Of a stretch of DNA of 32,000 nt, positions 2,822-19,116 are shown piece after piece (the stretch's first letter is position 1; the number at the start of each line of letters is the position of its first letter). The notes beneath the pieces were generated by a model. That model searched no databases. It saw only the letters and a program-made list of their open reading frames with translations, and was not told the DNA's origin. Made by a program: the position numbers and the translations under genes. The DNA is from Flavobacteriaceae bacterium (GTDB taxonomy: Bacteria > Bacteroidota > Bacteroidia > Flavobacteriales > Flavobacteriaceae): positions 2,640,001 to 2,672,000 of the forward strand of contig OZ245049.1 in NCBI GenBank assembly GCA_965224465.1, written 5' to 3'.

Positions 2822-3511
2822 ATGGTAAAAGCAATATTAATAATAGATGGAAAAGAAGTAAACGTACGTTGGTTTACTATCAATTTTAATCAAGGAGCAA
2901 ATCCTAACGGAAGACCTTCACAAATCCCGGTATTTATAGGTTTTAAACTAATTATAGAAACCAGAAAAGACCTAAACCTTACTGAGTGGGCCTTTTCCTC
3001 TAGACAAACAAAACAGATAGTATTACATATTAGTTCCGTTATTGTGGGAGGCAAAACAAGAAAAATATTTTTCTATGACTGTCATCTTGTAAACTGGAAA
3101 ACAAATTTTTCTTCTACAGGATCAGATCCAATGACGGAAACTTTAGAAATCACCTGTGCGGGTGTTGAAGATTCTAACTCGTTTGGTGTGTATTCTGCTT
3201 CGTGGAGAAAAACTTATAAAGAAGAAAATATTGAACCTACAATTTTAGATAATAACAATGAAAAAGAGTTTACAAGATGTTATATTACAGACTTAGAAGA
3301 AAATGAATTAAATGAATATAAAACTGGAGATAAAATTCTATTGAACATTGAAAGTGAAAATCGTATAGGAGATAATATGACTATTTTTTTAGATGATAAA
3401 ACTCATGATTTCAAAAAAAACGGTCAAACTTTAGAAAATGACACCTTAAAACATACAGTTAGTAGTAATTTTGAACAAATAGAGTTAGAAGTAATAGACC
3501 AAATAAATTAA
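2822..3511 (+). CDS. tssD: Type VI secretion tube protein TssD/Hcp (Bacteroidota T6SSiii type) with a C-terminal extension of about 95 aa
   Basis: Residues 1 to about 130 follow the Bacteroidota TssD pattern: A.L.IDGKE..V, NGRPS, L.EW, YDCHLV, and GSDPMTETLEITCAGVE, which corresponds to the PxSETxxIxA end of the TssD fold. Known TssD proteins end about there. This ORF continues for roughly 95 more residues (nt about 3212-3508). Confidence 0.75.
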   Translation: MVKAILIIDGKEVNVRWFTINFNQGANPNGRPSQIPVFIGFKLIIETRKDLNLTEWAFSSRQTKQIVLHISSVIVGGKTRKIFFYDCHLVNWKTNFSSTGSDPMTETLEITCAGVEDSNSFGVYSASWRKTYKEENIEPTILDNNNEKEFTRCYITDLEENELNEYKTGDKILLNIESENRIGDNMTIFLDDKTHDFKKNGQTLENDTLKHTVSSNFEQIELEVIDQIN

Positions 3512-3518
3512 CACAAAA

Positions 3519-4349
3519 ATGGGAAAGAATACATTTAGAGTAGAATTTGATGATGGAGCTACTAAATCCGTGAGCATTAATATAGTAGACCCTATTACAA
3601 ACTTAGCTCTATACGGAAGTGGGTTTTTAGAACCTAATTCCTCAGGTGGAGGTCATGATACTGGTGACGGATTTAAAAGAATAGCAGAAGCAAGACATAA
3701 AATAAACGAAAAAAAAACTCCAAAAGACATTAATAAAATTCTGTTTTGCCCTACAGATTATGATTTTTTCAAGATTATCAATAATACTAAAAATATAGGA
3801 AGATTAGATATTTATTGTCATGGTTGGCTTGACGGCATAAATCTTGGTGGCTTTAAAGGTAAAAGAAAATTAGGAGGTATTGAAGTAGATGGTGACAAAA
3901 TAGATTGGATGGATAAAAATGAAAATAAAGGTAAAGATTTGAGAAGAGTAGAAACACGTGAAAATTTATACTTAAATAGTACAGAAAAAACAGAATTAAC
4001 TAAACTAAAATCATCTCCTTTTTCTGCTAATACCGAGGTGTACTTTTGGGGTTGTAATATTGGAGGTCAGTTGAGTCCTAAAGGAATCCATATAGCCAAC
4101 AATAACCCTCTAATCAAAGACCCAAAAATTTCTTTTGCTCAAAAATTTGCTAAAAAAATGGGGAAAGGAAATGTTTATGCTCTAGTTGGAAAAGGAAGTG
4201 CAGCTGGTTCTATGTTTAAAAGGAATTCTAAAGAAAAGAATATTTATAGTGATGGGGAGATGATTCCTGCCAATATTTCATATAATCATGGAAATAAAAA
4301 CACCATAATACTTGATGCAACAAAATATCTTAAAAAATTTCCTTTATAA
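3519..4349 (+). CDS. Hcp-linked effector candidate with a His/Cys dyad (DUF4347-like / clan-CD-peptidase-like pattern)
   Basis: Starts 7 nt after the tssD stop and has no signal peptide. LDIYCHGWLDGINLGG has its His codon at 3819-3821. EVYFWGCNIGG has its Cys codon at 4053-4055. In both motifs a hydrophobic strand precedes the catalytic-type residue. This is followed by SFAQKFAKKMGKGNVYALVG. Confidence 0.55.
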   Translation: MGKNTFRVEFDDGATKSVSINIVDPITNLALYGSGFLEPNSSGGGHDTGDGFKRIAEARHKINEKKTPKDINKILFCPTDYDFFKIINNTKNIGRLDIYCHGWLDGINLGGFKGKRKLGGIEVDGDKIDWMDKNENKGKDLRRVETRENLYLNSTEKTELTKLKSSPFSANTEVYFWGCNIGGQLSPKGIHIANNNPLIKDPKISFAQKFAKKMGKGNVYALVGKGSAAGSMFKRNSKEKNIYSDGEMIPANISYNHGNKNTIILDATKYLKKFPL

Positions 4350-5047: not shown

Positions 5048-6304
5048 TTTATTGAAACAGAAGGTATAGATGATGGAACTGAACTTGAAATAGAAATTAG
5101 TGCTAAAAATGAGGAAGGAACAACTGTTGAAATAAAAAATGATGACGACCAACCTATAAAAATCACAGCAAAAGCAACCTGTAACAACGTTACTTTTGAG
5201 CCTTTCTATGTAAATCCAAAATGGTTTGACAAAAAAGCTCCTATCACTTACTTTTTTAATCTTAAAATTAAAGATGAAAACACTTATATCTGTGAGAATT
5301 TACCAAATGATATTGAAAACCAATTAAAACCTATAGGATTTGGAAAACCAGACGAGTTTAAAATTGACAAAGCAAAAGGATATCTATTAGTAAAAAATAA
5401 AAATGGAACAAAAACGGCTTATACGAGTGGAGAACGATTAGATATTTTAAAGTACCAAAAATGGTTTGAAGATGATTCTGAAGAAATAGACATTAAAAAT
5501 AAAAAGCAATATAAGAGCTATTTTAAAAGTGTTTATTTGACCCGTTTGTTTGGTTGGTCAATAAATAATGAATTTGATAATGAGGCTAACAGACAACAAA
5601 TAATTGCAGAGTTTGAAAAAGCAGGAAAAAAATATAATATTCCACCTTCTATTCTATGGACATACGCAGCAGGGGAAGGACTTCTTGAAAATTGTAGTTG
5701 GAGACCTAAACGTGTAGATTTAAAAGCGGAGGTGAACTCATTCAAAGCCTTTGGTTTAGATTTTTTTGAAAATCATGTGAAAACAATGAGAACAAAAGGC
5801 TATTTAGATGCTTCTTTTAAACAGAACAAGACAAATGTTATTTATAGCGGTTCTTACAAAATGCCCCCCTCTTTTACAGAAGACTATGCTGCTATTAGAA
5901 ATAAGTATGGAACTAAACTCATAAGAAAAGAATCGGCCGACCCCGCAGCTACTGGAACACGTGTATGCCCTGTGTTTTTTAAAGATTTACTAACAGGAAT
6001 AAAAGGCGCATCTGCTATATATGCAAATGCTTATGATTATGCTTCAACAAGTGCTCAAAATCTCGGTTGGGGAAAACTAACTTTAAATCAACAGGTATTT
6101 TTTGGATATGTAAAAATACAAAAGACTAGTGAAAAAGGAAATGCAGAGATCAATAGGTATAGAAATAAACCAGACGCTAATTTTTTAGATGAAAATTATA
6201 CTAGGGATGCCACTAGAACAGATTTATTGCTCATTAAAAATAAATGTTATGTAAGATGGGTTGTTTGGCGCTATGTATTATTAGGAAAACACTTTAGTAA
6301 ATAA
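4988..6304 (+). CDS. 5'-truncated (orphan) effector A: partial delivery domain plus a toxin domain of unknown family. There is no ATG/GTG/TTG before nt 5537.
   Basis: The frame is open from 4988 (after TAG at 4985-4987) to 6304. I translated 5042-5536 codon by codon and found no stop and no ATG, GTG or TTG. Residues encoded by 5042 to about 5530 are homologous to the N-terminal region of the 15943 effector (FYVNPKWF vs FYLDPKWY; ITYFFNLKIKDE vs ITFIFEAKFEDR; LKPIGF vs LRPITY). The first 50 or so codons of that domain are missing and the inter-cassette repeat sits in their place. Confidence 0.7.
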   Translation, partial: VPPIFRSFSLTLFCGDSFLLFIETEGIDDGTELEIEISAKNEEGTTVEIKNDDDQPIKITAKATCNNVTFEPFYVNPKWFDKKAPITYFFNLKIKDENTYICENLPNDIENQLKPIGFGKPDEFKIDKAKGYLLVKNKNGTKTAYTSGERLDILKYQKWFEDDSEEIDIKNKKQYKSYFKSVYLTRLFGWSINNEFDNEANRQQIIAEFEKAGKKYNIPPSILWTYAAGEGLLENCSWRPKRVDLKAEVNSFKAFGLDFFENHVKTMRTKGYLDASFKQNKTNVIYSGSYKMPPSFTEDYAAIRNKYGTKLIRKESADPAATGTRVCPVFFKDLLTGIKGASAIYANAYDYASTSAQNLGWGKLTLNQQVFFGYVKIQKTSEKGNAEINRYRNKPDANFLDENYTRDATRTDLLLIKNKCYVRWVVWRYVLLGKHFSK

Positions 6305-6311
6305 AAAAAAT

Positions 6312-6944
6312 ATGAAAAAAATAATTATAGTTATCTATTTATTAACGGGGAGCATTCTAGTCAATGCCCAAAGAAATTACACAACAAGATCAAAAGACAA
6401 AACAGTAAGCGCTACAACTTTCATTAACCATGGTGAAGGTCTGGATAGTGTAATTGTAACAAACAAAAAACATAAAATGAGGTTCTTGCCCAGCACACCT
6501 TTATTTAATTTTTATGATAAAAATAATGAACCTGAACCTGAACCAATAGGGAATTATTTTACTGCTTATAGCATACAAAAAATAAAAAAAAACATATATC
6601 TACTAGTAGGTCTTGGTGGATATCGAAATTTTGAGATTGAACTCCATTTAATTATTATTAAGAAAAATAAAATATTAAAATATTATATAGTTAAATCAGG
6701 CGATAAAACGCTGAGAGATCCAAGATTTAAATACCTGTCTAAAACAAAAGAAATACTAATTTCAATTCCGAAACTAGATACACCAGAAAATTCTGTTCAT
6801 GAAATAAACTTAAAAGAAAATAAATTCAAGATTATAAAGTCACTTACAGCAAAGGAACTTACCGTAAAGCCACTAACGGAAAAGACACTTACTAAAAAGG
6901 TGTCAGATTCTTTGTTCTATCATTATAAATTGAAAATAAAATAA
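6312..6944 (+). CDS. Exported protein, candidate immunity A1
   Basis: Starts 7 nt after the effector A stop. Signal peptide MKKIIIVIYLLTGSILVNAQ. Paralog of 7341-7973 and distant homolog of 8890-9498. Confidence 0.6.
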   Translation: MKKIIIVIYLLTGSILVNAQRNYTTRSKDKTVSATTFINHGEGLDSVIVTNKKHKMRFLPSTPLFNFYDKNNEPEPEPIGNYFTAYSIQKIKKNIYLLVGLGGYRNFEIELHLIIIKKNKILKYYIVKSGDKTLRDPRFKYLSKTKEILISIPKLDTPENSVHEINLKENKFKIIKSLTAKELTVKPLTEKTLTKKVSDSLFYHYKLKIK

Positions 6945-7340: not shown

Positions 7341-7973
7341 ATGAAAAAAATAATTATAGTTATCTGTTTTTTAACGGGGAGCATTTTAGTCAATGCCCAA
7401 AGAAATTACACAACAAGATCAAAAGACAAATTAGTAAGCGCTAAAAATTTCATTGGTGCTCAAGAACGTATAGATAGTGTACTTGTAACAAATAAAAAAC
7501 ATAAATTGAGATTCGCGTTCCGTACACCATTATTTAATTTTTATGATGAAAATAATGAACCTAGACCTGAACCAATAGGTTACGCTTTTCGTGCTTATAG
7601 CATACAAAAAATAAAAAATAAAGTATATATGCTAGTAGGTATTGGTGGAAATCGAAATTTTGGGGTTGAACTCCATTTAATTATTATTAAGAAAAATAGA
7701 ATATTAAAATATTATATAGTTAAATCAGGCGATAAAATACTGAGAGATCCAAGATTTAAATACCTGCCTAAAACAAAAGAAATACTAATTTCAATTCCGA
7801 AACTATATACTCCAAAAGATTATATTTATGCAATAAACTTAAGAGAAAACAAATTCAAGACTATAAAGGCACTTACAGCAAAGGAACTTACCGTAAAGCC
7901 ACTAACGGAAAAGACACTTACTAAAAAGGTGTCAGATTCTTTGTTCTATCATTATAAATTGAAAATAAAATAA
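7341..7973 (+). CDS. Exported protein, immunity paralog A2 (orphan immunity candidate)
   Basis: 210 aa, the same length as 6312-6944. By my count 41 of 210 residues differ. All differences lie before the last 35 residues, which are identical. Signal peptide MKKIIIVICFLTGSILVNAQ. Confidence 0.6.
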   Translation: MKKIIIVICFLTGSILVNAQRNYTTRSKDKLVSAKNFIGAQERIDSVLVTNKKHKLRFAFRTPLFNFYDENNEPRPEPIGYAFRAYSIQKIKNKVYMLVGIGGNRNFGVELHLIIIKKNRILKYYIVKSGDKILRDPRFKYLPKTKEILISIPKLYTPKDYIYAINLRENKFKTIKALTAKELTVKPLTEKTLTKKVSDSLFYHYKLKIK

Positions 7974-8124
7974 AGATTCTTTGTTTTAACATTAGGAAAT
8001 AAAAAAAACAGCATATAAAAGCTGATTGTCAGGTGATTTTCATTTAAAAACTCATAATAAATAGAACCTATCAACTCAACGCTATTTATAATTATACTAG
8101 GACAGCGTAAATAATGTAGGATAA

Positions 8125-8886
8125 AAAAAACTACCTTTAAATCAACAGGTATTTTTTGGATATGTAAAAACACAAAAGACTAGTAAAAAAGGAAATACTA
8201 CTAACGTAAGTCGTGTAATTAAAGCATTTAATGATGCAGGAAAAAAACATAATTTGTCTGCTTCACTTTTATACACTTATGCATGTGGAGAAGGAATGAT
8301 TAGCGATTACAAATATTTTCATAATAATAATTTAGACAAACCAGTATTGTCTTTTGAGACTTATGGTTTAGATTTTTTTGAAAAAGAAGTTGCAAATTTA
8401 ATAGCTGAAGGATATTTACAGAGTTCTTTTATATCAGGGGGACTGAAGAATACTAGAAGAGGAACTAGCCAAAACCCTCCAAAACCTTTTCCAAGAGGTT
8501 CTAATTATGCTTTAGTTAGAGTTTCAGGAAGTCCGATGACTAGAAGTGAAGCAGGTGGAAAAATGGATGTTTATCCAGTTTGGTTTAGGGTTTTAGAAGA
8601 TGGAGTTGAGGGAGCTACTGCTGTTTATGCCAGAGCTTATCAGTTAGCAATAAATGACGCCAATACTTCTGGCTGGAAGAAACTAAATAGTAATCAAAAA
8701 GCTTTCTTTGGTTATCATAAAATTCAAAATCATGAAACTTTTACTGACTTCTATAAATATAATAATCAAATTTTCCTCAAAGGTAAATACAGTAGAGATC
8801 CAAAGACTAAATACATAAAACATAAAGCTTTCCAACGGTTTGCAGCTTGGAGGTATATCTTATTAGGTAAATATTTTAACGATTAA
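8125..8886 (+). CDS. Orphan toxin module B: complete toxin domain (homolog of the effector A toxin) fused in frame to an 18-codon stub of the effector A tail, with no delivery domain
   Basis: The frame is open from 8125 and the first start codon is TTG at 8254. 8143-8196 encodes QQVFFGYVKTQKTSKKGN, which is the repeat-unit head. From 8197 it reads TTNVSRVIKAFNDAGKKHNLSASLLYTYACGEG..., which aligns with effector A IIAEFEKAGKKYNIPPSILWTYAAGEG and continues to a homologous C-terminus (WRYILLGKYF vs WRYVLLGKHF). Confidence 0.65.
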   Translation, partial: KKLPLNQQVFFGYVKTQKTSKKGNTTNVSRVIKAFNDAGKKHNLSASLLYTYACGEGMISDYKYFHNNNLDKPVLSFETYGLDFFEKEVANLIAEGYLQSSFISGGLKNTRRGTSQNPPKPFPRGSNYALVRVSGSPMTRSEAGGKMDVYPVWFRVLEDGVEGATAVYARAYQLAINDANTSGWKKLNSNQKAFFGYHKIQNHETFTDFYKYNNQIFLKGKYSRDPKTKYIKHKAFQRFAAWRYILLGKYFND

Positions 8887-8889
8887 AAA

Positions 8890-9498
8890 ATGACAAAAAG
8901 AATAACGTTACTATTGGTGCTTGCTTTCTTCATTACCAAGGCATATTCACAGCAAAGATCACATACTCTTTTTGACAAAGATTCTCTTGTTAGTGTAACT
9001 AATTATATTAATAAATTTCAGATCATCGATAGTTTAGTAATTAAAACAAGTAAGAAAAAAATAATTATTTCTGAAAGAAGTGTAATTCGTTTTTATGGAA
9101 ATAACAATGCAAATGAAGAATTAGGAATTTGTCCATTTGCTACAGAAATCTTCTATTTTGATAAACGAATAATACTTATGTCTGCTATTTTTAGAAATAG
9201 TTTTTCTACATCTTTTTATATTTTTTCTATAAATGTAAAAACAGGAAAAATTATTAAAATTATTAAAACAAAATCCTATAAAAAAGGCTTAAATAAATTA
9301 ACTATAATAATAAAGAATAAAATAATTATTCCTAAAAAAGTAAATTTCATTAGCAGTGATACTATAAAAGTAATAAATAAAAACAGGAAAATAATAAATC
9401 TAATAACCACTTCTTCTAAATGTATTAAATCATTAATACTAGGAGATTTAAAAAGTGAATTAGAGAAGGAAAGTTATTTTGAAGTACCTATAAAGTAA
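8890..9498 (+). CDS. Exported protein, candidate immunity B
   Basis: Starts 3 nt after the stop of module B. Signal peptide MTKRITLLLVLAFFITKAYSQ. Distantly similar in layout to immunity A1/A2 (DSLVSVTNYI..IDSLVIKT vs DKTVSATTFI..LDSVIVTN). Confidence 0.55.
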   Translation: MTKRITLLLVLAFFITKAYSQQRSHTLFDKDSLVSVTNYINKFQIIDSLVIKTSKKKIIISERSVIRFYGNNNANEELGICPFATEIFYFDKRIILMSAIFRNSFSTSFYIFSINVKTGKIIKIIKTKSYKKGLNKLTIIIKNKIIIPKKVNFISSDTIKVINKNRKIINLITTSSKCIKSLILGDLKSELEKESYFEVPIK

Positions 9499-9516
9499 GA
9501 AAGTTGTTTTTGAGCA

Positions 9517-10002
9517 TTGGATTTAAAAAAAAGACCTATAACAACATATTGTCAAGGCGTTAGTATTTGGATACCCATAACAACTCTTCTTCTGAGTGCA
9601 TGTTCAAATGAAATCAAGTTTGAGTCTTCAGAAGTGGTTAAAAACCCTCATTGGAGTGACAGATACTATGCTTTTTATTTAGTAAGTAATTATGATGAAA
9701 GTAAGTATCCTAAAGTGAGTCAATTGGCATCGGATGAGTTTATTCGTATAACACAAACAAATGATTCACTTGAATATATTCAATTTGATTTTTATAAAAA
9801 AAATTGGAATACATCTATATTTCTAACCTCTTGGGATCCTTATGGTAGTAATAGCCTTATGCTTCCTGAAAATGACAAAAAATATGGAAAATACCATATT
9901 GATGGAACTTACTACAAACGGATAGGAAAGTCCAATAAATGGCATCATAATTCTTGGAAGATGGAAGTAGCTGATACAATTGTAGTGAAATCAAATAAGT
10001 AG
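9517..10002 (+). CDS. Orphan copy of the lipoprotein immunity gene found at 11968-12423, with a replaced 5' end
   Basis: From nt 9578 it is near-identical to 11999 onward. The lipobox LLLSAC is retained. The N-terminal 20 codons (TTG start, MDLKKRPITTYCQGVSIWIPI) are unrelated to the intact copy. Confidence 0.6.
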   Translation: MDLKKRPITTYCQGVSIWIPITTLLLSACSNEIKFESSEVVKNPHWSDRYYAFYLVSNYDESKYPKVSQLASDEFIRITQTNDSLEYIQFDFYKKNWNTSIFLTSWDPYGSNSLMLPENDKKYGKYHIDGTYYKRIGKSNKWHHNSWKMEVADTIVVKSNK

Positions 10003-10013
10003 AAGGCTTAATT
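9578..10013 (+). repeat. 436-bp near-identical duplication, copy 1 (partner 11999-12434)
   Basis: Line-by-line comparison found only 5 substitutions. Homology extends 11 nt past the stop codon. Confidence 0.9.
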
Positions 10014-10024
10014 TATATTCATAC

Positions 10025-10424
10025 CCCTAAAACAACCGTTTTAAACGGTTAAAACGATTATTGAATAACAACCCTTTTTAAGCGTAAAAACACGTAGCAT
10101 TCCTCTTTTTAGAAGTAATAACACTGTTAAAATAATTGATACAGCTAAAAAAAACACACCGTTCCCCCAGTAATTTGCATCAATTAAAACCCTACAAGTA
10201 CCGCCAATACTACAAAGTACGCACACAACCCTTTGCAGTAACATTTATTAATAAACACCCCTGGTTATATGCTGCTAATTAAAATTATTAACGACCTTTG
10301 ATCTATTATTTTAATACCTTCTGTAGTGCTTGTAGGTATTACGGAAATAACGTCAACTTTAGGGTTGCTATTGTGGATATAGACGTGTTACAAAACATTA
10401 AAACCGCACCGTAAAAAAGAAACA
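10025..10424 (+). promoter_or_regulatory. Conserved effector leader, copy 1 (partner 15591-15942)
   Basis: Aligns with 15591-15942 along its whole length, apart from a 22-nt and an 18-nt insertion and scattered substitutions. It ends at the effector start codon. It contains the direct repeats CTACAAGTAC (10192-10201) and CTACAAAGTAC (10210-10220). Confidence 0.7.
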
Positions 10425-11966
10425 ATGAGTAAGGAACCAATAGTAATGAGGGAAAAAGAAAATCCTCCAAGAAAAAAAGAAGAGTTTAGTACATTATCAA
10501 TAACTATTACGGTTGATGACCCTGATGTAATAATAGCACCAGCGGCTCAAAAACCTGCCACATTAAAGTTTGCAAAACCATTAGTCAAAAAGATGGAAGG
10601 ACCATTTAATGAACAAGGAAAACTTATTGAAGAAATGATAGAGGGGCAAGAATATGTTTTTAAAGCTACAGAGTTTCAAAAATCTACTATGTCACCTATA
10701 AAACATATTTGGTGGGCGGAAAAAATTGACGAAGGGGAGATAACAGATCTCGAATATAACAAAGGTGTAAACCCTTATTTAGATGACAAGAAAGTTGTGT
10801 GCTTTAAATATAAGGCAAAGAAAGCTGAAAAAATTAGGATTTATGCTTATGTGGCAAGTCCTGCAGAAAAAGTCAGTGTTGAAGTTCCAATTGTATCATT
10901 TCCATTGTGTATTGATAGGGTTAATTTACCAGGCTTAGATAGAAACCTAAAAGATATAGCTGAAGATATGACTTTTGGATATGGTAAAGTTGTTTCTCGT
11001 CCAATATATAGTTCTTCAGTAATAAATAAATATAAATCAGAGTACATTAAGAATGGTTTTGATTATGAGGGAAAGCACGGTCTATTTGCTAATATTAAAA
11101 ATGAGCAGTATCCAATAAAAGCTATTTACTCAGAGAAGCAAATGGCAGATACTGAGGTTGCTCTATTTGGGAAAGAATGGATGGAGTGGTACGACTCCGG
11201 AGACGATATAATGAAGTATAAGTCTAAAGAAGAATATTCAGACGAGAAACTTTTTGATATATTCAGGGATAAAGCAAAATATTGGTTTGCAAAAGGTGAA
11301 CTAATTGGGAATATTGAGAGAATGATTGATCAATTTCAGGCAAATAAAGGTGGGATTTATGAGGATGAAGATTTGTCAAAAGCTTTAATAGATAGCTCCA
11401 ATATGGATCTTTATTGTAATAATGTACAAGATTATATTGCTCAACGTTTAAAAGAAAGAAAGGGTTTGGTACTAAAAGAAATTAATGGAGTTAAACCTTT
11501 ATTGGATGAAACCATCTACTTAGTTTTAGATAAGGATTCTCATAAGGCTCGTTTGAAGATTGGCAAAACAACATCCGTTCCAAGGGAAGATGGTAAAGGT
11601 AATTGTTTCTTCTTTCGCCCCACATTTGGTTCAAAGGAAGATAGAACAAAGGGAACTCAAATCGCAACAAATGATATTTGGTCAACAGAAGTAAAAATAA
11701 CAAATATAAAATTGGATGGCGATGACTATACAATTGATTACCATGTAAATTTATGGGATCATTTTGGCTTAGATATTGGAGATATGAAAGCTATGCCAAA
11801 TACCGCACCGTTTGCCAATAAAACATTTGCCGTTTGGTTTGTTTTACAACATTTAAGAGGATATAAGCCATTTGTAACTAAAATTACATTTGACAAATCC
11901 TTTTCTGGTAATTTAACAAAAGGCATGAAAGATAGAGTTACTGAAAGACAGAGTAAAAAAATATAA
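10425..11966 (+). CDS. Effector C, 513 aa, with a DUF3289-like C-terminal domain
   Basis: No signal peptide. The C-terminal region NDIWSTEVKITNIKLDGDDYTIDYHVNLWDHFGLDIGDM...FAVWFVLQHLRGYKPFVTKI matches my recollection of the DUF3289 signature (hDtWa, DHFGLDxxD, WFxLQ, YKPFxT). So does the upstream GNIERMIDQFQANKGGIY. Confidence 0.55.
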   Translation: MSKEPIVMREKENPPRKKEEFSTLSITITVDDPDVIIAPAAQKPATLKFAKPLVKKMEGPFNEQGKLIEEMIEGQEYVFKATEFQKSTMSPIKHIWWAEKIDEGEITDLEYNKGVNPYLDDKKVVCFKYKAKKAEKIRIYAYVASPAEKVSVEVPIVSFPLCIDRVNLPGLDRNLKDIAEDMTFGYGKVVSRPIYSSSVINKYKSEYIKNGFDYEGKHGLFANIKNEQYPIKAIYSEKQMADTEVALFGKEWMEWYDSGDDIMKYKSKEEYSDEKLFDIFRDKAKYWFAKGELIGNIERMIDQFQANKGGIYEDEDLSKALIDSSNMDLYCNNVQDYIAQRLKERKGLVLKEINGVKPLLDETIYLVLDKDSHKARLKIGKTTSVPREDGKGNCFFFRPTFGSKEDRTKGTQIATNDIWSTEVKITNIKLDGDDYTIDYHVNLWDHFGLDIGDMKAMPNTAPFANKTFAVWFVLQHLRGYKPFVTKITFDKSFSGNLTKGMKDRVTERQSKKI

Positions 11967-11967
11967 T

Positions 11968-12423
11968 ATGTGTAAAACAATAAATAATTTAATCTTAGTA
12001 ACAACTCTTCTTCTGAGTGCATGCTCAACTGAAATCAAGTTTGAGTCTTCAGAAGTGGTTAAAAACCCTCATTGGAGTGACAGATACTATGCTTTTTATT
12101 TAGTAAGTAATTATGATGAAAGTAAGTATCCTAAAGTGAGTCAATTGGCATCGGATGAGTTTATTCGTATAACACAAACAAATGATTCACTTGAATATAT
12201 TCAATTTGATTTTTATAAAAAAAATTGGAATACATCTATATTTCTAACCTCTTGGGATCCTTATGGTAGTAATAGCCTTATGCTTCCTGAAAATGACAAA
12301 AAATATGGAAAATACCATATTGATGGAACTTACTACAAACGGATAGGAAAGTCCAATAAATGGCTTCATGATTCTTGGGAGATGGAAGTAGCTGATACAA
12401 TTGTAGTGAAATCAAATAAGTAG
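11968..12423 (+). CDS. Lipoprotein, candidate cognate immunity C
   Basis: Its ATG lies 1 nt after the effector C stop. MCKTINNLILVTTLLLSACS is a lipoprotein signal peptide. Confidence 0.65.
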   Translation: MCKTINNLILVTTLLLSACSTEIKFESSEVVKNPHWSDRYYAFYLVSNYDESKYPKVSQLASDEFIRITQTNDSLEYIQFDFYKKNWNTSIFLTSWDPYGSNSLMLPENDKKYGKYHIDGTYYKRIGKSNKWLHDSWEMEVADTIVVKSNK

Positions 12424-12434
12424 AAGGCTTAATT
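11999..12434 (+). repeat. 436-bp near-identical duplication, copy 2 (partner 9578-10013)
   Basis: See copy 1. The offset is 2421 nt throughout. Confidence 0.9.
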
Positions 12435-12922
12435 GTTTTGATTAAGGTGTAATAAATAATGTTTTGTAACACATGCTCTTACATCATAGCTTTGCCGCAG
12501 GCGCAACACAAAGCTACGCTGCATAGCACCATCATTAGCAAAAACACTAAACTGAAATATCACCTTAAATACAAATTACAATAAAAAAATTACAGAAAAT
12601 AATCCTATTAACCTTAATCTTATTAGGATTATTAACTTTCACCTGTAGTGAGAATTTGAATGAATCATTAAATGAAAGCCCTTAAAATTCATTTATATTA
12701 AAAGAAGGAGTATTAAAATTTAAAAACGAAGAAGAACTAGAGCAATTAGTTAAAGAAACAGGAGCAGAAAAATTTTATAACAAAAAATATAAAAGTCCCA
12801 TTTCCTAAATTAAGTACGTCTAATTATGATACTGGATCAATAGACATTTATGGAGGAGCTTTTTATGGTGGTAAATGGTATGGGAAACGATTAATTTCTG
12901 CTGACTTTGAATAGGTAATAAT

Positions 12923-13480
12923 ATGAAAAATAAAATAACAATTATTTTATTTTGTGCTTTTGTATCACATACGAAAGCACAAAATTCAAATATAGAAAAA
13001 TCAATCATTGGTATACAAGCAGGATTTTTAGGTGCTTGGGTTTATAATGAATTCAAACTCATTGATAAATTTGCATTACGAACAGAACTTGGACTAAGCT
13101 CAGGGTTTGGGGATAATGGAAAAATAGAGTTAGTTATTTCTCCAACATTAGCTATAGAACCTAGAATATACTATAACATCAATAAAAGAGCCAAAAAAGA
13201 AAAGATGATTATAAACAATAATGCAAATTTCTTTGCACTTACTACTAGATATAATCCGGATTGGTTTGTAATTTCTAGTAATAAAAACAATAATGTTCCT
13301 AGTCAAATATTAATAGTTCCAAAATGGGGTATGAGAAGGAGTATAAATAAACATTTTAATTATGAATTAGGTGTTGGTTTAGGTATTCGTTCTTATTTTG
13401 GGATGAGAATAGGATTTAATAACAAAGCGAATGAAGCTGCTGCTGAACTTCACATAAGAATTGGATATGATTTCAAATAA
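12923..13480 (+). CDS. Small outer-membrane beta-barrel-like protein
   Basis: Signal peptide MKNKITIILFCAFVSHTKAQ. Alternating hydrophobic beta-strand pattern, with a C-terminal ...HIRIGYDFK aromatic end. Confidence 0.5.
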   Translation: MKNKITIILFCAFVSHTKAQNSNIEKSIIGIQAGFLGAWVYNEFKLIDKFALRTELGLSSGFGDNGKIELVISPTLAIEPRIYYNINKRAKKEKMIINNNANFFALTTRYNPDWFVISSNKNNNVPSQILIVPKWGMRRSINKHFNYELGVGLGIRSYFGMRIGFNNKANEAAAELHIRIGYDFK

Positions 13481-13766
13481 AATAAATTTTAAGACATCTT
13501 TTATTCTCTTTTTAATAATAGTTCTACTAAGCTCATGTGTTTCTTTTTTTGGGTTTGAAAAAAGAAATTATAACTATGAGTACAAAAGTTTTGCTAGAAA
13601 CATAAATTTAAGTGAAGGAAAATGGCTTTTAACGCCAATTTCTTCCACTTCTTTCGGAAGTAATGAAGATGAATCTTATAACCTGTTAAAAGAGTTTTTA
13701 ACTTCTAAATTGGGAGACAGATTAAAAATATCTAACAAATTAAAAGATAAGAATAACAAATCTTAA
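13461..13766 (+). pseudogene. 5' part of a lipoprotein gene interrupted by IS30
   Basis: Lipobox LLSSC. The reading frame ends in a stop created exactly at the IS boundary (TAA 13764-13766, IS inverted repeat from 13767). Confidence 0.65.
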
Positions 13767-14881
13767 ATTCAACTAATAAACGCAACTTTTCGATTTGATT
13801 CTATGATGGTTATATTTTCAAAACAGAAAAGTAGGAAAACCTACCTTTCTTGTCTTGATGGATATGTATCTTACGGTCTCAAATCTCGAAAAAAGAAGTT
13901 GTATGAAACACATCACCCAAGCGCAAAGATACACAATTTGTTGCATGTTAAAACAAGGTTATAAACAGGTTGAGATAGCAGCTGCTATAGGAAAAGACAA
14001 GTCTGTTATTAGCAAAGAGATTAAGCGTAATTCAGACAAAAGAAATGGAGTTTACAAGCATGAATTAGCCCAAAAAAAGTATGCTAAACGTCATAAAGAA
14101 AAGCCTAAAAGAAAACGCTTTACAGAAGATATTCAACAAGCAATAGAGTTGTTATTGCGAGACGATTATAGTCCTGAGCAAGTAGTTGGTGTCCTAAAAA
14201 AACAAGGTAAAGAAACGGTGTCTATTGAGCGTATATATCAGCATATTAGGGAAGACAAGAGGAATGATGGTGATTTACATACACACCTTCGCAGACAGGG
14301 AAGGAGATATAGAAAACGTGGCTCATCAAAGGATTCTAGAGGGGTTATAAAGAATCGTATTAGTATAGAACAACGCCCTGAAGTTGTTGAACAAAGAAAT
14401 CGATTTGGAGATTTAGAGGTCGATTTAATCATAGGTAAAAACCATAATCAAGCCATACTTACCGTAAATGATAGAGCTTCTGGAATGCTTAAAATGAAAA
14501 AAGTAAGCTCTAAAGAAGCAGTTGTTGTCACTAAAGCTATCAATGAAATATTAGAAGACTGGAAGCCTTATCTACATACTATAACAGCTGATAATGGAAA
14601 AGAATTTGCAGGCCATGAGCAGGTTGCAGAAAATTTATGTATTGATTACTTTTTTGCGCATCCATATCACTCTTGGGAAAGAGGATCTAACGAAAATTTA
14701 AATGGTTTGATTAGACAATATTTTGCCAAAGGAAGTGACTTTACAAACCTAACAGATCAAAGAATCAAAGAGGTAGAAACAAAATTAAATAACAGACCTA
14801 GGAAGAGACATAAATATCAAAACCCTATATTTGTAATGGAACAATTATTATTTAACTAAAAGTTGCGTTTGTGACTTGAAT
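13767..14881 (+). mobile_element. IS30-family insertion sequence, apparently intact
   Basis: Terminal inverted repeats: ATTCAActaAtAAACGCAACTTTT at 13767-13790, and the reverse complement of 14858-14881, which reads ATTCAAgtcAcAAACGCAACTTTT. It encloses one complete transposase ORF. Confidence 0.85.
13903..14859 (+). CDS. IS30-family transposase
   Basis: MKHITQAQRYTICCMLKQGYKQVEIAAAIGKDKSVISKEIKRN is the IS30 helix-turn-helix N-terminus. The DDE integrase core is present (DLIIG..., TADNGKEF, SWERGSNEN). The ATG at 13903 is preferred over the 13855 start in the ORF track. Confidence 0.85.
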   Translation: MKHITQAQRYTICCMLKQGYKQVEIAAAIGKDKSVISKEIKRNSDKRNGVYKHELAQKKYAKRHKEKPKRKRFTEDIQQAIELLLRDDYSPEQVVGVLKKQGKETVSIERIYQHIREDKRNDGDLHTHLRRQGRRYRKRGSSKDSRGVIKNRISIEQRPEVVEQRNRFGDLEVDLIIGKNHNQAILTVNDRASGMLKMKKVSSKEAVVVTKAINEILEDWKPYLHTITADNGKEFAGHEQVAENLCIDYFFAHPYHSWERGSNENLNGLIRQYFAKGSDFTNLTDQRIKEVETKLNNRPRKRHKYQNPIFVMEQLLFN

Positions 14882-14882
14882 T

Positions 14883-15251
14883 CAGCAATACTTAATTCCA
14901 TTTAATATCGATTTAGACAATATAAAAGAAAATATTAGCTTTTTGAGAGCATCATCAAAATGTGATTACCTCATTAGTTCAAAAATATATTATCTTGATG
15001 ATACGCGCGATATTGGAGTGGGACAATATCATAAAAATAAAAACTTAAAAAGTAATGGATATAAGTCAGCCTGTAAAATTTCCATTATTGCTTATGATTT
15101 AAAAACAGAAGAGGAAATATTTAATTTAGATTGTTTAGGTTATATATGGATTGATGATGAACTTGACGAAGGCCTTAAAATATATCAAACATCTAAATCA
15201 GCTAGTGCCGATGTTATGGCTAAAATTATAAAAAAATTAAAAGAAAGATAA
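14883..15251 (+). pseudogene. 3' part of the IS30-interrupted lipoprotein gene
   Basis: The frame is open from 14883 (QQYLIPFNIDLDNIKENISFLRASS...), which is 60 nt upstream of the TTG used by the ORF track. It is in the same coordinate frame as 13461-13763, and the intervening 1119 nt is a multiple of 3. Confidence 0.6.
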
Positions 15252-15264
15252 ACACATACTATTG

Positions 15265-15450
15265 CAAATAACTAAGTGTTCCTACGCGTAGTACCTAGCA
15301 TGCACATAGGGCTGACTATACCAGCTAAAAAGATGATACTATGGGGATTGCATGATTTAATTAAGAGGCTATCGACAAAGATCTTTATAGATACTACCTG
15401 TTTTTAGGTCATTTGCTCTATCGCTCTTTTGTGGGTATAGATTTTTACTA
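15265..15450 (+). repeat. Inter-cassette repeat, copy 2 (full length)
   Basis: Aligns with 4858-5047. Begins 13 nt after the stop at 15251. Contains the perfect palindrome CTACGCGTAG. Confidence 0.8.
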
Positions 15451-15590
15451 TATTTCGATACTGATTATTGTTGGTTAGTAGCGTTTATGCATCCGTTTCC
15501 CATTACGTGGCTACGTTTGTTTTTTTATTCGGTATTAGTACCTGACGACAATCTTTTTAAAAAAAAAGAAGACTTAATTGTTATTCTTAG

Positions 15591-15942
15591 CCCTAAAACG
15601 ATTATTGAATAACAACCCTTTTTAAGCGTAAAAACACGTAGCAATAACACTGTTAAAATAATTTATACAGCTAAAAAAAACACAGTTCTCCCAGTAATAT
15701 GCATCAATTAAAACCCTACAAGTACCGCCAATACTACAAAGTACGCACACAACCCTTTGCAGTAACATTTATTAATAAATACTCCCAGTTATATGCTGCT
15801 AATTAAAATTATTAACGACCTTTGAACTATTAATTTAATAGCTTCTGTAGTGCCTGTAGGTATTACGAAAATAACGTCAACTTTAGGGTTGCTATTGTGG
15901 ATATAGATGTGTTACAAAACATTACCAAAAAATCAAAAAAGA
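15591..15942 (+). promoter_or_regulatory. Conserved effector leader, copy 2
   Basis: Aligns with 10025-10424. Ends at the ATG at 15943. Confidence 0.7.
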
Positions 15943-17565
15943 ATGAAAAGAACAGGATTTACGATAACTTTTGAAGATGGAGAATCTCATACAAGATATT
16001 TGACACCTATTGGTATTAGAGATGGGGTTTGGTTAGATAATGAAGGTAATAAATTACAACAATCAAATAGATTGACAACTAACGCTTTTTTTGGAGAAAA
16101 TGTTAAAATTCAAATAGAAACATTTAATATTACTGATGGAAAAAAATTAGATATTAAGATTAAAGCTAAAATTGGAGAAGAATATGTAGAAGAGTTTGAA
16201 GAAATAATTCATAAACTTGAAATAAAGAATAATTTGGCTACTTTAGAAAATTTCTATTTAGACCCTAAATGGTATAATGAGGAAATTGAAAATTACAATT
16301 ATGATACTCATTCTACAGAAATTGATTTTGAGAAAGCTATAACTTTTATTTTTGAAGCAAAATTTGAAGATAGAGATTGGGATAAAGCTAGAAGTTTTCC
16401 TAAAAATGAAAATGATTACCTAAGACCAATAACTTACCGAAGAAATTACGAAGAACTCATAGGACTTTTTAAAACTGATAATAGTGGAGAAAAAGATGTA
16501 AAAAGTAACTATGAAAATAAATTCATTAATAATAATGTTGAAATCAAAAGTTTTGTTGACGAATTTATAGAAAAAACCATTGAAGAAAACATAACTATTA
16601 CTGATATAAAAGTATTAATTGAAGAAAAAGCAACTGCACTTTGGGATACATCTGTAAAACAAGTACAAAATGGTAATCTTGACGACAGACCATTATACTG
16701 GGCTCGAAATAAAATGCAAACTTGGCTCAAACGGAACCCACTTTTTAAAGACCAAATTAATTTTGAAAAATCTATCGTAAAAAAAGGGACTGAGCTTGAA
16801 AAAATAATAACCCTTTTTGAAGAAAAAAGCAGGAATTATACAGGAATTGACTTCTCTAAAGCTGAAAACAGGAAAAAAGTATTGATTACTGGATTTGACC
16901 CGTTTCAACTAAATCCTGATACCAATTTTAATACTAGTATGGGGGTAGATTCTGCAAATACATTTAATCCTTCTGGAATTGTTGCTTTGCATTTAAATGG
17001 AAAATTGATAGGTAATGACATTTACATTCAAACTTGTATTTTTCCAGTACGATATGAAGATTTTGATAAAAAATATGTAGAAAAACTAATTAAAGAGCAT
17101 ATTTCAGATGTAGATGTTATAATCACAACTAGCTTGAACGGGGGGAATAATTGGTTTGATATTGAAGCTGACGCAATAGAATATAGAGGTGGTTTTCACG
17201 ATAATATGTGTATTGGAGGACAAAACTATAGTAAATTTAAATACAACTCAAGTAGATTTATAGCTAATACGAGTAACAAACATAATCTCACAACACTTCC
17301 TAAAACAAAGATATTTAGTGATAATTCATCTATAAATATCAATGGGTTAATTGTTAAATATGATACTACAAGATTAAATTCTAAAACTGAAGGTGGTGGT
17401 GGAAATTACCTCTCTAATGAAATAATGTATAGAGCTACTTCAATAAGAGCGAATAAATCAAAAATACCTGTTGGACACTTTCATCTAGCAAATTTAAGAA
17501 CAATAAAAAGAAGCAATGAGATTTTGAATGTAACAGAAATCGTAATAAAGAAAATAGTAGAATGA
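15943..17565 (+). CDS. Effector D, 540 aa: delivery domain shared with effector A, plus a C-terminal pyroglutamyl-peptidase I (C15)-like domain with a Glu/Ser/His triad
   Basis: The ATG at 15943 (MKRTGFTITFEDG) is preferred because the ATG at 15907 lies inside the conserved leader, where the other copy has ACG. The C-terminal 230 or so residues align with Pcp. KKVLITGFDPF matches KKVLxTGFxPF. DIEADAIE matches the catalytic-Glu motif PERVAIN (Glu codon 17164-17166). GGGNYLSNEIMY matches AGxFVCNxxxY (Ser TCT at 17413-17415 where Pcp has Cys). PVGHFHLA matches GGFIHIP (His codon 17482-17484). Confidence 0.7.
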   Translation: MKRTGFTITFEDGESHTRYLTPIGIRDGVWLDNEGNKLQQSNRLTTNAFFGENVKIQIETFNITDGKKLDIKIKAKIGEEYVEEFEEIIHKLEIKNNLATLENFYLDPKWYNEEIENYNYDTHSTEIDFEKAITFIFEAKFEDRDWDKARSFPKNENDYLRPITYRRNYEELIGLFKTDNSGEKDVKSNYENKFINNNVEIKSFVDEFIEKTIEENITITDIKVLIEEKATALWDTSVKQVQNGNLDDRPLYWARNKMQTWLKRNPLFKDQINFEKSIVKKGTELEKIITLFEEKSRNYTGIDFSKAENRKKVLITGFDPFQLNPDTNFNTSMGVDSANTFNPSGIVALHLNGKLIGNDIYIQTCIFPVRYEDFDKKYVEKLIKEHISDVDVIITTSLNGGNNWFDIEADAIEYRGGFHDNMCIGGQNYSKFKYNSSRFIANTSNKHNLTTLPKTKIFSDNSSININGLIVKYDTTRLNSKTEGGGGNYLSNEIMYRATSIRANKSKIPVGHFHLANLRTIKRSNEILNVTEIVIKKIVE

Positions 17566-18020
17566 TTATGAAACTAATAATAACATTAATATTTATTTCA
17601 ATTTTTCAGTTTTCTTACGCACAATCTTGTGGTAGTGGGGAGTTAATATTTGATTTTTATACAATGGACAATGAAAAGTTAGAATATGAAATTTCGGAAA
17701 TAGAAGTAATTGATAGTATCCTATTAGACAAAACCTATCAAGGAATCAAAATAGATTCTACAAACCTAGAGGGAATAAAGCAATATAAATTTAATAAAAA
17801 AAAATTACCTAAATTTATTTCTGAGTCAATGAAATGTAATAATTCAATAATTAATAATCAATTAAGTTTTAAAACACTTGAATTATTTAATAAAGTTTTT
17901 TTATTAAGAGTTTGGAGCAAAAATAGTGAAATTAAAATTTTAATTGAGTTATTTGGTGGTTGTAATAGAAAGAAAATAATCGTTATGTCAAAAGAACCTA
18001 TCTTGATACATAAAGATTAA
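17562..18020 (+). CDS. Exported protein, candidate immunity D
   Basis: Its start overlaps the effector D stop (ATGATTATG). Signal peptide MKLIITLIFISIFQFSYAQ. Confidence 0.6.
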   Translation: MIMKLIITLIFISIFQFSYAQSCGSGELIFDFYTMDNEKLEYEISEIEVIDSILLDKTYQGIKIDSTNLEGIKQYKFNKKKLPKFISESMKCNNSIINNQLSFKTLELFNKVFLLRVWSKNSEIKILIELFGGCNRKKIIVMSKEPILIHKD

Positions 18021-18041: not shown

Positions 18042-18698
18042 ATGTATAAAAAATACAAAAAAAAAACAGGAAAAAAAGTAAAACAAAAAATTATTGGATC
18101 ATATACTGGTAATCTTCAATATGCAGATGTTGATACTTATAAAGTATTTGTTACAGATGAAGAAGACGCTAGTTTTAAATTGGAGTTTTCAGTAGCTAGA
18201 GACGCATATGCCGTAATTCCAGGAAATGATAAAGGGAGAACAATAATTTTATCTAATATGTCTTTTGAACCAAAGGATGGGAAAATCAACCATTATTCCG
18301 GAAAATACATGAAAATTTATCCTAAAAAGAATGATACTCCTGCTATAAAATTAACTCAGAAAGGGTCAGAGGTTATGCATACTGAATCTAGACCTGATGC
18401 ATTATCATTAAACTACCGTTCAAAAAAAGATATTGCTTCTGGGGTAATGATTCATGTTGGAGGCAATTATGATAACGAACAACACGGCAAAGCTATTTCA
18501 GCTTCAGAAGGTTATTTTGGAATTGTTAATAATGGTAATTCACAAAAAAACACTTCTGACAAACTAACTAAAGAAGTAATAAATACTGTTTGGAAACGAG
18601 CACAAAACAGTAAGTCAAATCCAAACCATATTAGAATAATTATAGAAAAAAGAGATGAAAAAAGCATTCCAAATAATATCGTTTTTACAAAAAAATAG
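18042..18698 (+). CDS. Small effector candidate E with a YkuD/Tlde1-like (L,D-transpeptidase fold) motif in which the Cys position is Tyr
   Basis: No signal peptide and a Lys-rich N-terminus. In IHVGGNYDNEQHGKAISASEGYFGI the His codon is at 18453-18455. Sixteen residues later comes S-E-G-Y (TAT 18513-18515). This reproduces the H-x(14-17)-[ST]-x-G-C-hydrophobic spacing, except for the nucleophile. Confidence 0.4.
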   Translation: MYKKYKKKTGKKVKQKIIGSYTGNLQYADVDTYKVFVTDEEDASFKLEFSVARDAYAVIPGNDKGRTIILSNMSFEPKDGKINHYSGKYMKIYPKKNDTPAIKLTQKGSEVMHTESRPDALSLNYRSKKDIASGVMIHVGGNYDNEQHGKAISASEGYFGIVNNGNSQKNTSDKLTKEVINTVWKRAQNSKSNPNHIRIIIEKRDEKSIPNNIVFTKK

Positions 18699-19116
18699 AA
18701 TTATTTTTATTTTATTAATTATTTCATCATGTAGTAAACAAGTTAAGTTTAATAAAGTAACTACAGGTGTTTTAGTTCCTAAAGGACAAAATATTGTTTA
18801 TAATAATGAATCAATTATAGAAGTAAACAATAATACAATATTTATAAGAAAAATTGAAAAATACAATCAAGATTTAAATTTATTAGAAGTTGATATTTCA
18901 AAGGCAGAAAGTATGTTAACTTATTCAAGAAAAGAATTAGAAAACGATAGTGCTTTAATTGATTACTATCAAATATCCAAAGACAGAAAAAAAACATCTA
19001 TTAAAAATGATTTTATATTTGATAATAATGTAAAATATAAAATCATTTATAAAGTAAAAGATACTGTTTTATGTATTAAAGATAAGAGTATACTCCTTTT
19101 AACAAGATCACATTAA
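18655..19116 (+). CDS. Lipoprotein, candidate immunity E
   Basis: Overlaps the end of effector E by 44 nt. MKKAFQIISFLQKNRIIFILLIISSCSK contains a lipobox (ISSC). Confidence 0.55.
   Translation: MKKAFQIISFLQKNRIIFILLIISSCSKQVKFNKVTTGVLVPKGQNIVYNNESIIEVNNNTIFIRKIEKYNQDLNLLEVDISKAESMLTYSRKELENDSALIDYYQISKDRKKTSIKNDFIFDNNVKYKIIYKVKDTVLCIKDKSILLLTRSH

Follow-up and report, generated by a model that had tools for sequence, protein, structure and literature searches.

A probable type VI secretion effector with a pyroglutamyl-peptidase I-like fold and a family-wide serine at the nucleophile position

The gene considered in this report occupies positions 15943 to 17565, on the forward strand, of a 32,000-nucleotide stretch of DNA from a Flavobacteriaceae bacterium (assembly GCA_965224465.1, contig OZ245049.1, positions 2,640,001 to 2,672,000), which is referred to throughout as the window. 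We consider it probable, at about seven chances in ten, that the product of this gene is an effector that travels as cargo of a type VI secretion system (T6SS) of the Bacteroidetes type, and that it is endowed with an enzymatic activity that would be exerted in the periplasm and accompanied by an exported immunity protein. The reading is built on the predicted fold of the C-terminal part of the protein, which is that of pyroglutamyl-peptidase I (Pcp), on a conserved set of residues that align with the catalytic triad of Pcp, on the repeated use of the same module behind domains of T6SS and of extracellular contractile injection systems (eCIS), and on the exported partner that is encoded directly downstream. 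Taken together, these observations suggest that the protein might be catalytically active, delivered in a T6SS-dependent manner and directed against a periplasmic substrate, for which several candidates are weighed below. The gene, its predicted parts and the candidate partner gene are as follows, with the basis of each assignment in parentheses.

15943 to 17565, forward strand: effector gene, 540 amino acids, ATG at 15943 and stop codon TGA at 17563-17565 (list of open reading frames, ORFs)
15985 to 16272, forward strand: "domain X", a beta-rich N-terminal domain, effector residues ~15-110 (jackhmmer)
16273 to 16518, forward strand: pre-toxin linker, residues ~111-192, RNYEELIGL...NYENKFI (conserved in homologs)
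16519 to 16860, forward strand: helical PA0049_N-type domain, residues 193-306, with the motifs DDRPLYWAR and EExSRNY (annotation of homologs, AlphaFold2 model)
16861 to 17562, forward strand: predicted C15-fold catalytic domain with Ser as nucleophile, residues 307-540 (Pfam, profile against the PDB, Foldseek)
17164 to 17166, forward strand: GAA codon of Glu408, acid of the putative triad (counterpart, in the alignment, of the catalytic Glu in Pyrococcus furiosus Pcp, ISIER)
17413 to 17415, forward strand: TCT codon of Ser491, putative nucleophile in the invariant YLSNE (aligned to the Pcp nucleophile position)
17476 to 17484, forward strand: codons of His512-Phe-His514 (GHxH), of which His514 aligns with the catalytic His of Pcp and His512 is an extra family-specific invariant
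17562 to 18020, forward strand: immunity candidate, 152 amino acids, exported, with a start that overlaps the effector stop by 4 nt (ATGA)

The resemblance of the C-terminal part of the effector to Pcp (MEROPS C15, PF01470) can be recognized at several levels. The Pfam profile Peptidase_C15 matches residues 311-411 with 24.2 bits against a gathering cut-off of 22.7, over profile positions 1-82 only, while the NCBIfam model PRK13197 aligns weakly with residues 311-518 (22.7 bits against a cut-off of 199) and TIGR00504 stays below its threshold (18.4 bits against 201.75). A direct phmmer search with the effector against PDB sequences returned chance matches only (T4 gp17, E 0.2-0.7); a profile of 61 homologs matched 20 Pcp sequences in the PDB, the best with E=4.4e-11. 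In the profile alignment YLSNE falls on the nucleophile motif YL(C)N of Pcp, the catalytic Glu is matched by FD(I/L)E, and the catalytic His, in GFIH, by the second His of GHxH; the top PDB matches are Cys-free mutants of P. furiosus Pcp, which themselves read YLSN. We take Glu408 and His514 of the effector to correspond to Glu79 and His166 of the P. furiosus enzyme. An AlphaFold2 (AF2) model of residues 193-540 has a mean predicted local distance difference test score (pLDDT) of 93.0 and a predicted template modelling score (pTM) of 0.93, and all 34 of the PDB entries that Foldseek matched to it with E<=0.001 are Pcp (target TM-scores 0.62-0.73, probability 1.0). As in Pcp, a helix of the model has Ser491 at its N-terminus, and Glu408 and His514 are found where strands end. 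No papain-like fold of the NlpC/P60 or CHAP type was found among the Foldseek or Pfam matches of the effector.

On this evidence the C-terminal part of the effector is predicted to have the pyroglutamyl-peptidase I (C15) fold, the resemblance being well beyond chance. A sequence-only reading of the window had already proposed this fold, and had asked for the Foldseek comparison; its proposal is borne out by the Pfam match, the profile search and the modelled structure. The motif-by-motif correspondence to Pcp on which it relied is likewise found in the sequence, with GFDPF at residue 317, NPSG at 342, FDIE (containing Glu408), TLP at 451, YLSNE at 489 and VGHFH at 510 (containing His514), and with TCT at 17413-17415 encoding Ser491. 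The placement of Glu408, Ser491 and His514 at the triad positions of Pcp is supported both by the profile alignment and by the conservation of these residues in the family, so far as aligned sequences can indicate.

The initial database search yielded 76 relatives of the effector, and when 1.84 billion cluster representatives were searched exhaustively with a profile, 1249 proteins reached E<=0.001 and 570 reached E<=1e-30 (clusters at 50% identity). The best 150 representatives were inspected together with 80 genomic loci, and the taxonomic spread of the toxin-type members was sampled only. Conservation was counted over 218 aligned family sequences. Position 491, that of the nucleophile, is Ser in 216 of these, Pro in 1 and a gap in 1, with Cys in 0, and the acid position 408 is occupied by Glu in 146 and by Asp in 70. 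His512 is present in 216 of the 218 and His514 in 215. Residues R370, D373, S397, R415, N421, N492, E493 and R497 are essentially invariant, V369 and Y489-L490 are near-invariant, and the motifs PVRYxDFD, YLSNE, GHxH, R415 and DN, all of which occur in the effector, are conserved in at least 97% of the sequences. Among the 57 sequences that cover the relevant columns, E293, S296 and R297 are kept in 56-57. The codons for the equivalents of Ser491 in related loci belong to the TCN set in 106 cases (TCA, TCC, TCT and TCG) and to the AGY set in 2.

Since the serine is invariant in the family and is specified by diverse synonymous codons, the residue would have been held by selection for a long time, and judging from the alignment it is a family-wide trait. 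The proximity of TCT to TGT, one transversion apart, which the sequence-only reading had pointed out, is therefore irrelevant, and a recent pseudogenizing change from Cys to Ser at residue 491 is ruled out by the family invariance and the codon diversity. That the triad and ~15 further residues are conserved almost absolutely over sequences so diverse speaks for catalysis, with Ser491, His514 and Glu408 as a putative triad replacing the Cys, His and Glu of cytoplasmic Pcp. The two families have an alpha/beta fold and the motifs GF(D/E)PF, NP(S/T), PV, DN and YLxN in common, with the acid and His at the same positions, and they differ in the nucleophile, which is Cys in Pcp and Ser in the effector family. 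Unlike Pcp, the effector family also has the PA0049_N domain and the extra invariants R370, D373, S397, R415, E493, R497 and H512, and its members are exported or injected whereas Pcp is cytoplasmic. In the strict sense the effector is no member of C15, as it lacks the defining cysteine and fails the equivalog thresholds (18-23 bits against cut-offs of ~200). The proteins of this kind are a serine-using sister family of C15, not decayed Pcp.

The family takes its name from PA0049. Homologs of effector residues 193-306 carry a precomputed assignment to PF27118 (PA0049_N), and the effector was assigned to this domain through them. A domain of this type, ~115 residues long, always precedes the catalytic domain, free-standing secreted homologs included, and in the AF2 model it appears as helices (model residues 7-104, pLDDT 90-98) that form one compact unit with the catalytic domain. 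The toxin module of the effector is thus made up of residues ~193-540, PA0049_N plus the C15-fold domain, and the effector belongs to the PA0049-like family. The same two-domain module and the same invariant motifs are found in PA0049-like proteins such as the 382-amino-acid P0037 and P0052 of Pseudoalteromonas, which are 30-33% identical to effector residues 300-540. Free-standing relatives of this sort are 380-460 amino acids long, have signal peptides of their own, and come from Pseudoalteromonas, Colwellia, Shewanella, Kangiella, Streptomyces and others. They are without a conserved partner gene, and neither a conserved partner nor an informative neighbour was seen at the loci of free-standing members that were inspected for one (a Pseudoalteromonas locus, the proteobacterium-like L093 and the high-GC L094). 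The effector is unlike them in that it has no signal peptide, carries ~190 additional N-terminal residues and is followed by an adjacent immunity gene. As the free-standing relatives are exported, the fold must be able to work outside the cytoplasm and its ancestral job would have been an extracytoplasmic one; the exchange of an oxidation-prone thiol for a hydroxyl would suit work in an oxidizing extracytoplasmic space. In the literature we found PA0049 only as a "hypothetical protein" in expression tables, and no functional study of it.

The N-terminal region of the effector is of a different kind. The only alternative start of the reading frame is an in-frame ATG at 15907, 12 codons upstream of 15943. 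A word-indexed search with the N-terminal 192 amino acids gave 5 homologs only, and full-length homologs of 541-648 amino acids are encoded at the loci L005, L008, L088 and L089; over residues 104-535 the effector is 42% identical to the 634-amino-acid effector of L005. Domain X, as defined by a jackhmmer search with residues 1-110, recurs in ~35 other members of the toxin family from Bacteroidota. In these it precedes the toxin module and follows TssD (P0087, residues 144-242), DUF4280 (P0102, P0107) or an N-terminus of another kind. It is presumed to be a loading or adaptor domain. The linker motifs of residues ~111-192 recur in the consensus of the family alignment. The sequence-only reading had regarded the N-terminal 300 or so residues as a separate delivery region; the N-terminal ~190 residues are indeed distinct from the toxin, and the module begins near residue 193, with PA0049_N, rather than near 310. 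Its further statement that this region is shared with an "effector A" is not supported at the sequence level: BLASTP of the effector against ORF 10425-11966, BLASTP of its N-terminal 200 amino acids against all ORFs of the window and jackhmmer with residues 1-110 gave no shared N-terminal region in the window. A short pattern, F-x-[IV]-x-F-[DE]-D-G, is found at the N-terminus of ORF 3519-4349 (MGKNTFRVEFDDGATKS, 3519-3590) and in the effector (MKRTGFTITFEDGESHT, 15943-16010), as well as in the relatives P0105, P0121 and L024; it is too short to score, and it may be what had been taken for a shared delivery region.

The contexts in which the module occurs are those expected of a toxin. It stands at the C-terminus of proteins of 316-3255 amino acids with at least 8 kinds of N-terminus, many of the members with E<=1e-30 that end in it being 500-3255 amino acids long, and a Pfam search of 60 long members found eCIS_core in 7, DUF4280 (PAAR-like) in 4, YkuD in 4, TssD in 2 and patatin in 1; P0162 combines eCIS_core, YkuD and the module, and P0087 is a TssD fusion. 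The module is thus known from settings of four sorts, namely fusions to Hcp, DUF4280 or eCIS_core, positions beside VgrG, orphan cassettes, and proteins with signal peptides in Gammaproteobacteria and Streptomyces. At locus L007 a VgrG gene lies ~360 bp upstream of the gene for a 578-amino-acid homolog, with two very small ORFs between them, and further downstream there is an orphan cassette with its partner; at L005 the gene for the 634-amino-acid effector is followed by an orphan cassette that is 66% identical to the toxin of the window. Multiple delivery fusions, a nearby VgrG, orphan cassettes and an exported partner that co-varies, all seen in this family, characterize polymorphic toxins. 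The effector of the window itself has no Hcp, PAAR or VgrG domain. The window, for its part, is a co-oriented array of small gene pairs with a TssD gene, a DUF3289 protein, a metallopeptidase-like protein and insertion sequence (IS) elements, and the presence of the TssD gene in the same array links it to a T6SS.

2822 to 3511, forward strand: gene for a Bacteroidetes-type Hcp (TssD) with a C-terminal extension (Pfam TssD PF17642, E=1.1e-24)

The extension of this TssD protein amounts to ~110 residues beyond the Hcp domain; the protein is possibly an "evolved Hcp" whose tail is a small domain serving as cargo or adaptor. A further arrangement of the module was seen in the giant proteins P0176, P0156, P0199 and P0168 (2300-3255 amino acids), which have an S8 subtilase at the N-terminus and the PA0049-like module at the C-terminus; at L092 a giant gene of this S8-plus-module type (8001-15659) stands among T9SS-type (type IX secretion) genes and is followed by an ORF of 181 amino acids.

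The gene at 17562-18020 is a candidate for the cognate immunity gene, on the strength of its position and its homologs. Its product has a signal-peptide-like N-terminus (MIMKLIITLIFISIFQFSYA followed by QS, hence ending in SYA before Q) and three invariant Cys residues. All of the homologs found for it are encoded directly downstream of toxin genes with PA0049_N, at L001, L005, L008, L012, L088 and L089 and, as P0226, beside P0002; the identity is 97% to the L001 homolog and 49% to that of L005. At most of the 21 Bacteroidota loci inspected the gene that lies 0-50 nt downstream of the toxin gene specifies a protein of 150-250 amino acids with a signal-peptide or lipoprotein N-terminus, and the more divergent toxins are paired with other small exported or lipoprotein-like proteins. 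As the partner is exported, the toxin probably acts in the periplasm, and the view of the sequence-only reading that the exported candidate points there gains support from the signal peptide and from the conserved pairing of toxin and partner. An AF2 model of the immunity protein, made from 5 sequences, was too poor (pLDDT 57.9) to be taken into a fold search. A closely related strain (L001, 7238-9770) has its effector gene split by three transposase genes into fragments of 227 and 283 amino acids; that strain keeps its immunity gene, the 97% identical one.

These elements can be assembled into a mechanism in which the N-terminal ~190 residues, which contain no toxin, would presumably load the effector onto the secretion apparatus, and in which the helical PA0049_N domain, packed on the C15-fold hydrolase, would make a compact toxin module with its active site at Ser491, His514 and Glu408. 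After delivery into a neighbouring cell the enzyme would work in the periplasm, and the producer would be protected by the exported product of 17562-18020, which presumably binds and blocks it.

With regard to what the enzyme might cleave, we suggest tentatively, as our leading candidate but at odds well below even, that it has kept the ancestral substrate, N-terminal pyroglutamate. The equivalents of the residues that we presume, after Odagaki 1999 and Ito 2001, to form the pyroglutamate pocket of Pcp are retained, GFDPF being identical to the motif of the Bacillus amyloliquefaciens enzyme and V369 and Y489-L490 being the near-invariant residues mentioned above. Bacteroidetes cap most of the proteins that they export through signal peptidase I with pyroglutamate (the "Q-rule"; PMC5837995), and in Porphyromonas gingivalis the glutaminyl cyclase is essential and loss of the cap destabilizes exported proteins (PMC10653852, PMC5837995). 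The host of the window follows the Q-rule, since Gln follows the end of every one of the window's 6 signal peptides that are not of the lipoprotein type (VNA, AYS, TKA or SYA followed by Q, in the ORFs that start at 6312, 7341, 8890, 12923, 17562 and 28134). It is conceivable, if doubtful, that an injected serine-type pyroglutamyl peptidase strips the Q-rule caps from the exported proteins of Bacteroidetes prey. Removal of the caps would irreversibly undo the essential work of the glutaminyl cyclase and expose the proteome of the periplasm and outer membrane to aminopeptidases. If this were so, the effector would be the first T6SS toxin directed against an N-terminal modification of proteins and the C15 fold would have its first serine enzyme. 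Nature would thereby supply a tool with which to ask what makes the Q-rule essential, and periplasmic proteins could be uncapped in vivo with a reagent already at hand; interbacterial warfare would then be tied to the unexplained essentiality of the glutaminyl cyclase, a drug target in P. gingivalis.

Several observations weigh against these proposals. Within the window, 12 kb separate the effector gene from the closest T6SS gene, and the effector lacks a delivery domain. The family is also present in Gammaproteobacteria, in Streptomyces and among eCIS toxins from outside the Bacteroidota, none of which have a Q-rule, and the YkuD L,D-transpeptidase domain in 4 of the long members points to peptidoglycan. 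Judging by the number of additional charged residues that are invariant, the substrate may be more polar than a pyrrolidone ring alone. In addition, a Cys-to-Ser mutant of B. amyloliquefaciens Pcp was reportedly inactive; if a simple exchange abolishes activity, catalysis with Ser would need the help of the extra residues R370, D373, R415, E493, R497 and H512.

A cell-wall substrate is the main rival of the pyroglutamate reading, and we regard it as possible, at similar odds well below even. The gamma-glutamyl or N-terminal amide bond in peptidoglycan or lipoproteins that the sequence-only reading had put forward is a speculative target of this sort. The enzyme would in that case cut an amide of the peptidoglycan stem peptide (the bond between N-acetylmuramic acid, MurNAc, and L-Ala, or one around D-isoglutamate) or the link between lipoprotein and peptidoglycan, and the target cell would be lysed as it is by the Tae amidases, within the same logic of effector and immunity. 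Most of the T6SS effectors that act in the periplasm and resemble peptidases hit peptidoglycan, the immunity partner is periplasmic, the YkuD fusions such as P0162 (4 of 60) fit such a target, and the exported free-standing members occur in Gram-negatives and Gram-positives, whose common extracytoplasmic polymer is peptidoglycan. Against this, the motifs of a Pcp-type hydrophobic S1 pocket are kept, and peptidoglycan contains nothing like a pyrrolidone ring; no LysM, SPOR or PG_binding domain was seen in the 60 long members, and cell-wall genes are not conserved next to the free-standing members. An esterase, lipase or deacylase that attacks membrane lipids, the acyl chains of lipoproteins or lipid A, in the manner of the Tle phospholipases, is unlikely, and it stays unlikely when esterase and other activities are taken together. 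Triads of Ser, His and Asp or Glu are typical of esterases, one long member has a patatin phospholipase domain, and the first non-Pcp match of Foldseek is to a putative SGNH-type lipase; that match (E=0.015, TM 0.2) is not significant, patatin occurs in 1 of 60, and the protein has the fold and pocket motifs of an omega-peptidase without a GxSxG or GDSL motif.

It is also conceivable that the protein is a dead pseudo-peptidase that does harm by binding, or that it is no toxin at all, being a secreted housekeeping or nutritional peptidase that happens to lie in an island; we consider this very improbable. Cys-to-Ser mutants of canonical Pcp are said to be inactive, no immunity partner accompanies the relatives that are secreted as free-standing proteins in Pseudoalteromonas, Streptomyces and others, and IS elements break the effector gene in the related strain. 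A dead enzyme is hard to reconcile with the near-absolute conservation of the triad and ~15 further residues in the 218 sequences, and a non-toxin with the fusions to Hcp, DUF4280 and eCIS_core, the upstream VgrG, the orphan cassettes and the co-varying exported partner.

Comparison with known effectors places the cargo effector proposed here beside Tae1-4 with their Tai partners and beside Tlde1, which are also peptidase-type periplasmic effectors whose exported or lipoprotein immunity proteins are encoded directly downstream. The Tae effectors differ from it in being papain-like, of the NlpC/P60 or CHAP type with a Cys nucleophile, and Tlde1 in having the YkuD fold; neither matches the model of the effector. 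The substrate of Tae and Tlde1 is established as peptidoglycan. The sequence-only reading had known of no report of C15-fold domains as interbacterial toxins, which is to be corrected: "pyroglutamyl-peptidase" domains are listed among polymorphic toxins and Photorhabdus virulence cassette (PVC) toxins in one sentence of Zhang et al. 2012 (PMC3482391). The domains in question, which are said there to be C-terminal in polymorphic and PVC/eCIS toxins, very probably belong to the same family as the effector, and the passage concerned gives no alignment, Ser nucleophile, immunity family or link to the Bacteroidetes-type T6SS (T6SSiii). In our search of the literature neither PA0049 nor C15-like T6SS effectors turned up as the subject of experimental work, and we met with no mention of the change to serine, nor of such T6SSiii effectors. 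Effector-immunity pairs as such are familiar, but this catalytic domain belongs to no characterized toxin class, and its family comprises at least 570 clusters at 50% identity. What is apparently new is an effector-immunity pair built on an uncharacterized and apparently serine-dependent version of a cysteine-peptidase fold, in which the C15 fold, in its passage to the outside of the cytoplasm, would have exchanged its cysteine nucleophile for a serine. If active, it would represent a new family of serine hydrolases and a new toxin activity of T6SS and eCIS.

The surroundings of the effector gene contain other pairs of similar appearance. Between ORF 14943-15251 and the effector start there are ~690 bp (15252-15942) without an ORF of at least 60 amino acids, perhaps a promoter region or the scar left by an IS element; IS elements are present in the array at 1520-2401 and 13855-14859 (DDE_5 and IS30-like transposase). 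Directly after the immunity gene come 18042-18698 (218 amino acids, no confident Pfam match) and the overlapping 18655-19116 (153 amino acids, lipoprotein-like), which are probably the next effector-immunity pair of the array. The DUF3289/YPO3983-family protein of 10425-11966 is flanked by two lipoprotein-like ORFs, 9517-10002 and 11968-12423, that are 92% identical and look like a duplicated immunity gene around another effector. The paralogous putative effectors 5537-6304 and 8254-8886 (36% identical, no Pfam match) are followed by the signal-peptide partners 6312-6944 and 8890-9498, respectively, and 7341-7973 is an extra copy of the partner, 80% identical to 6312-6944. At the beginning of the window, ORF 33-1028 has weak zinc-metallopeptidase matches (HExxH, metzincin-like) that are sub-threshold in Pfam, and it is followed by the lipoprotein-like ORF 1032-1466, with which it possibly forms another effector-immunity pair.

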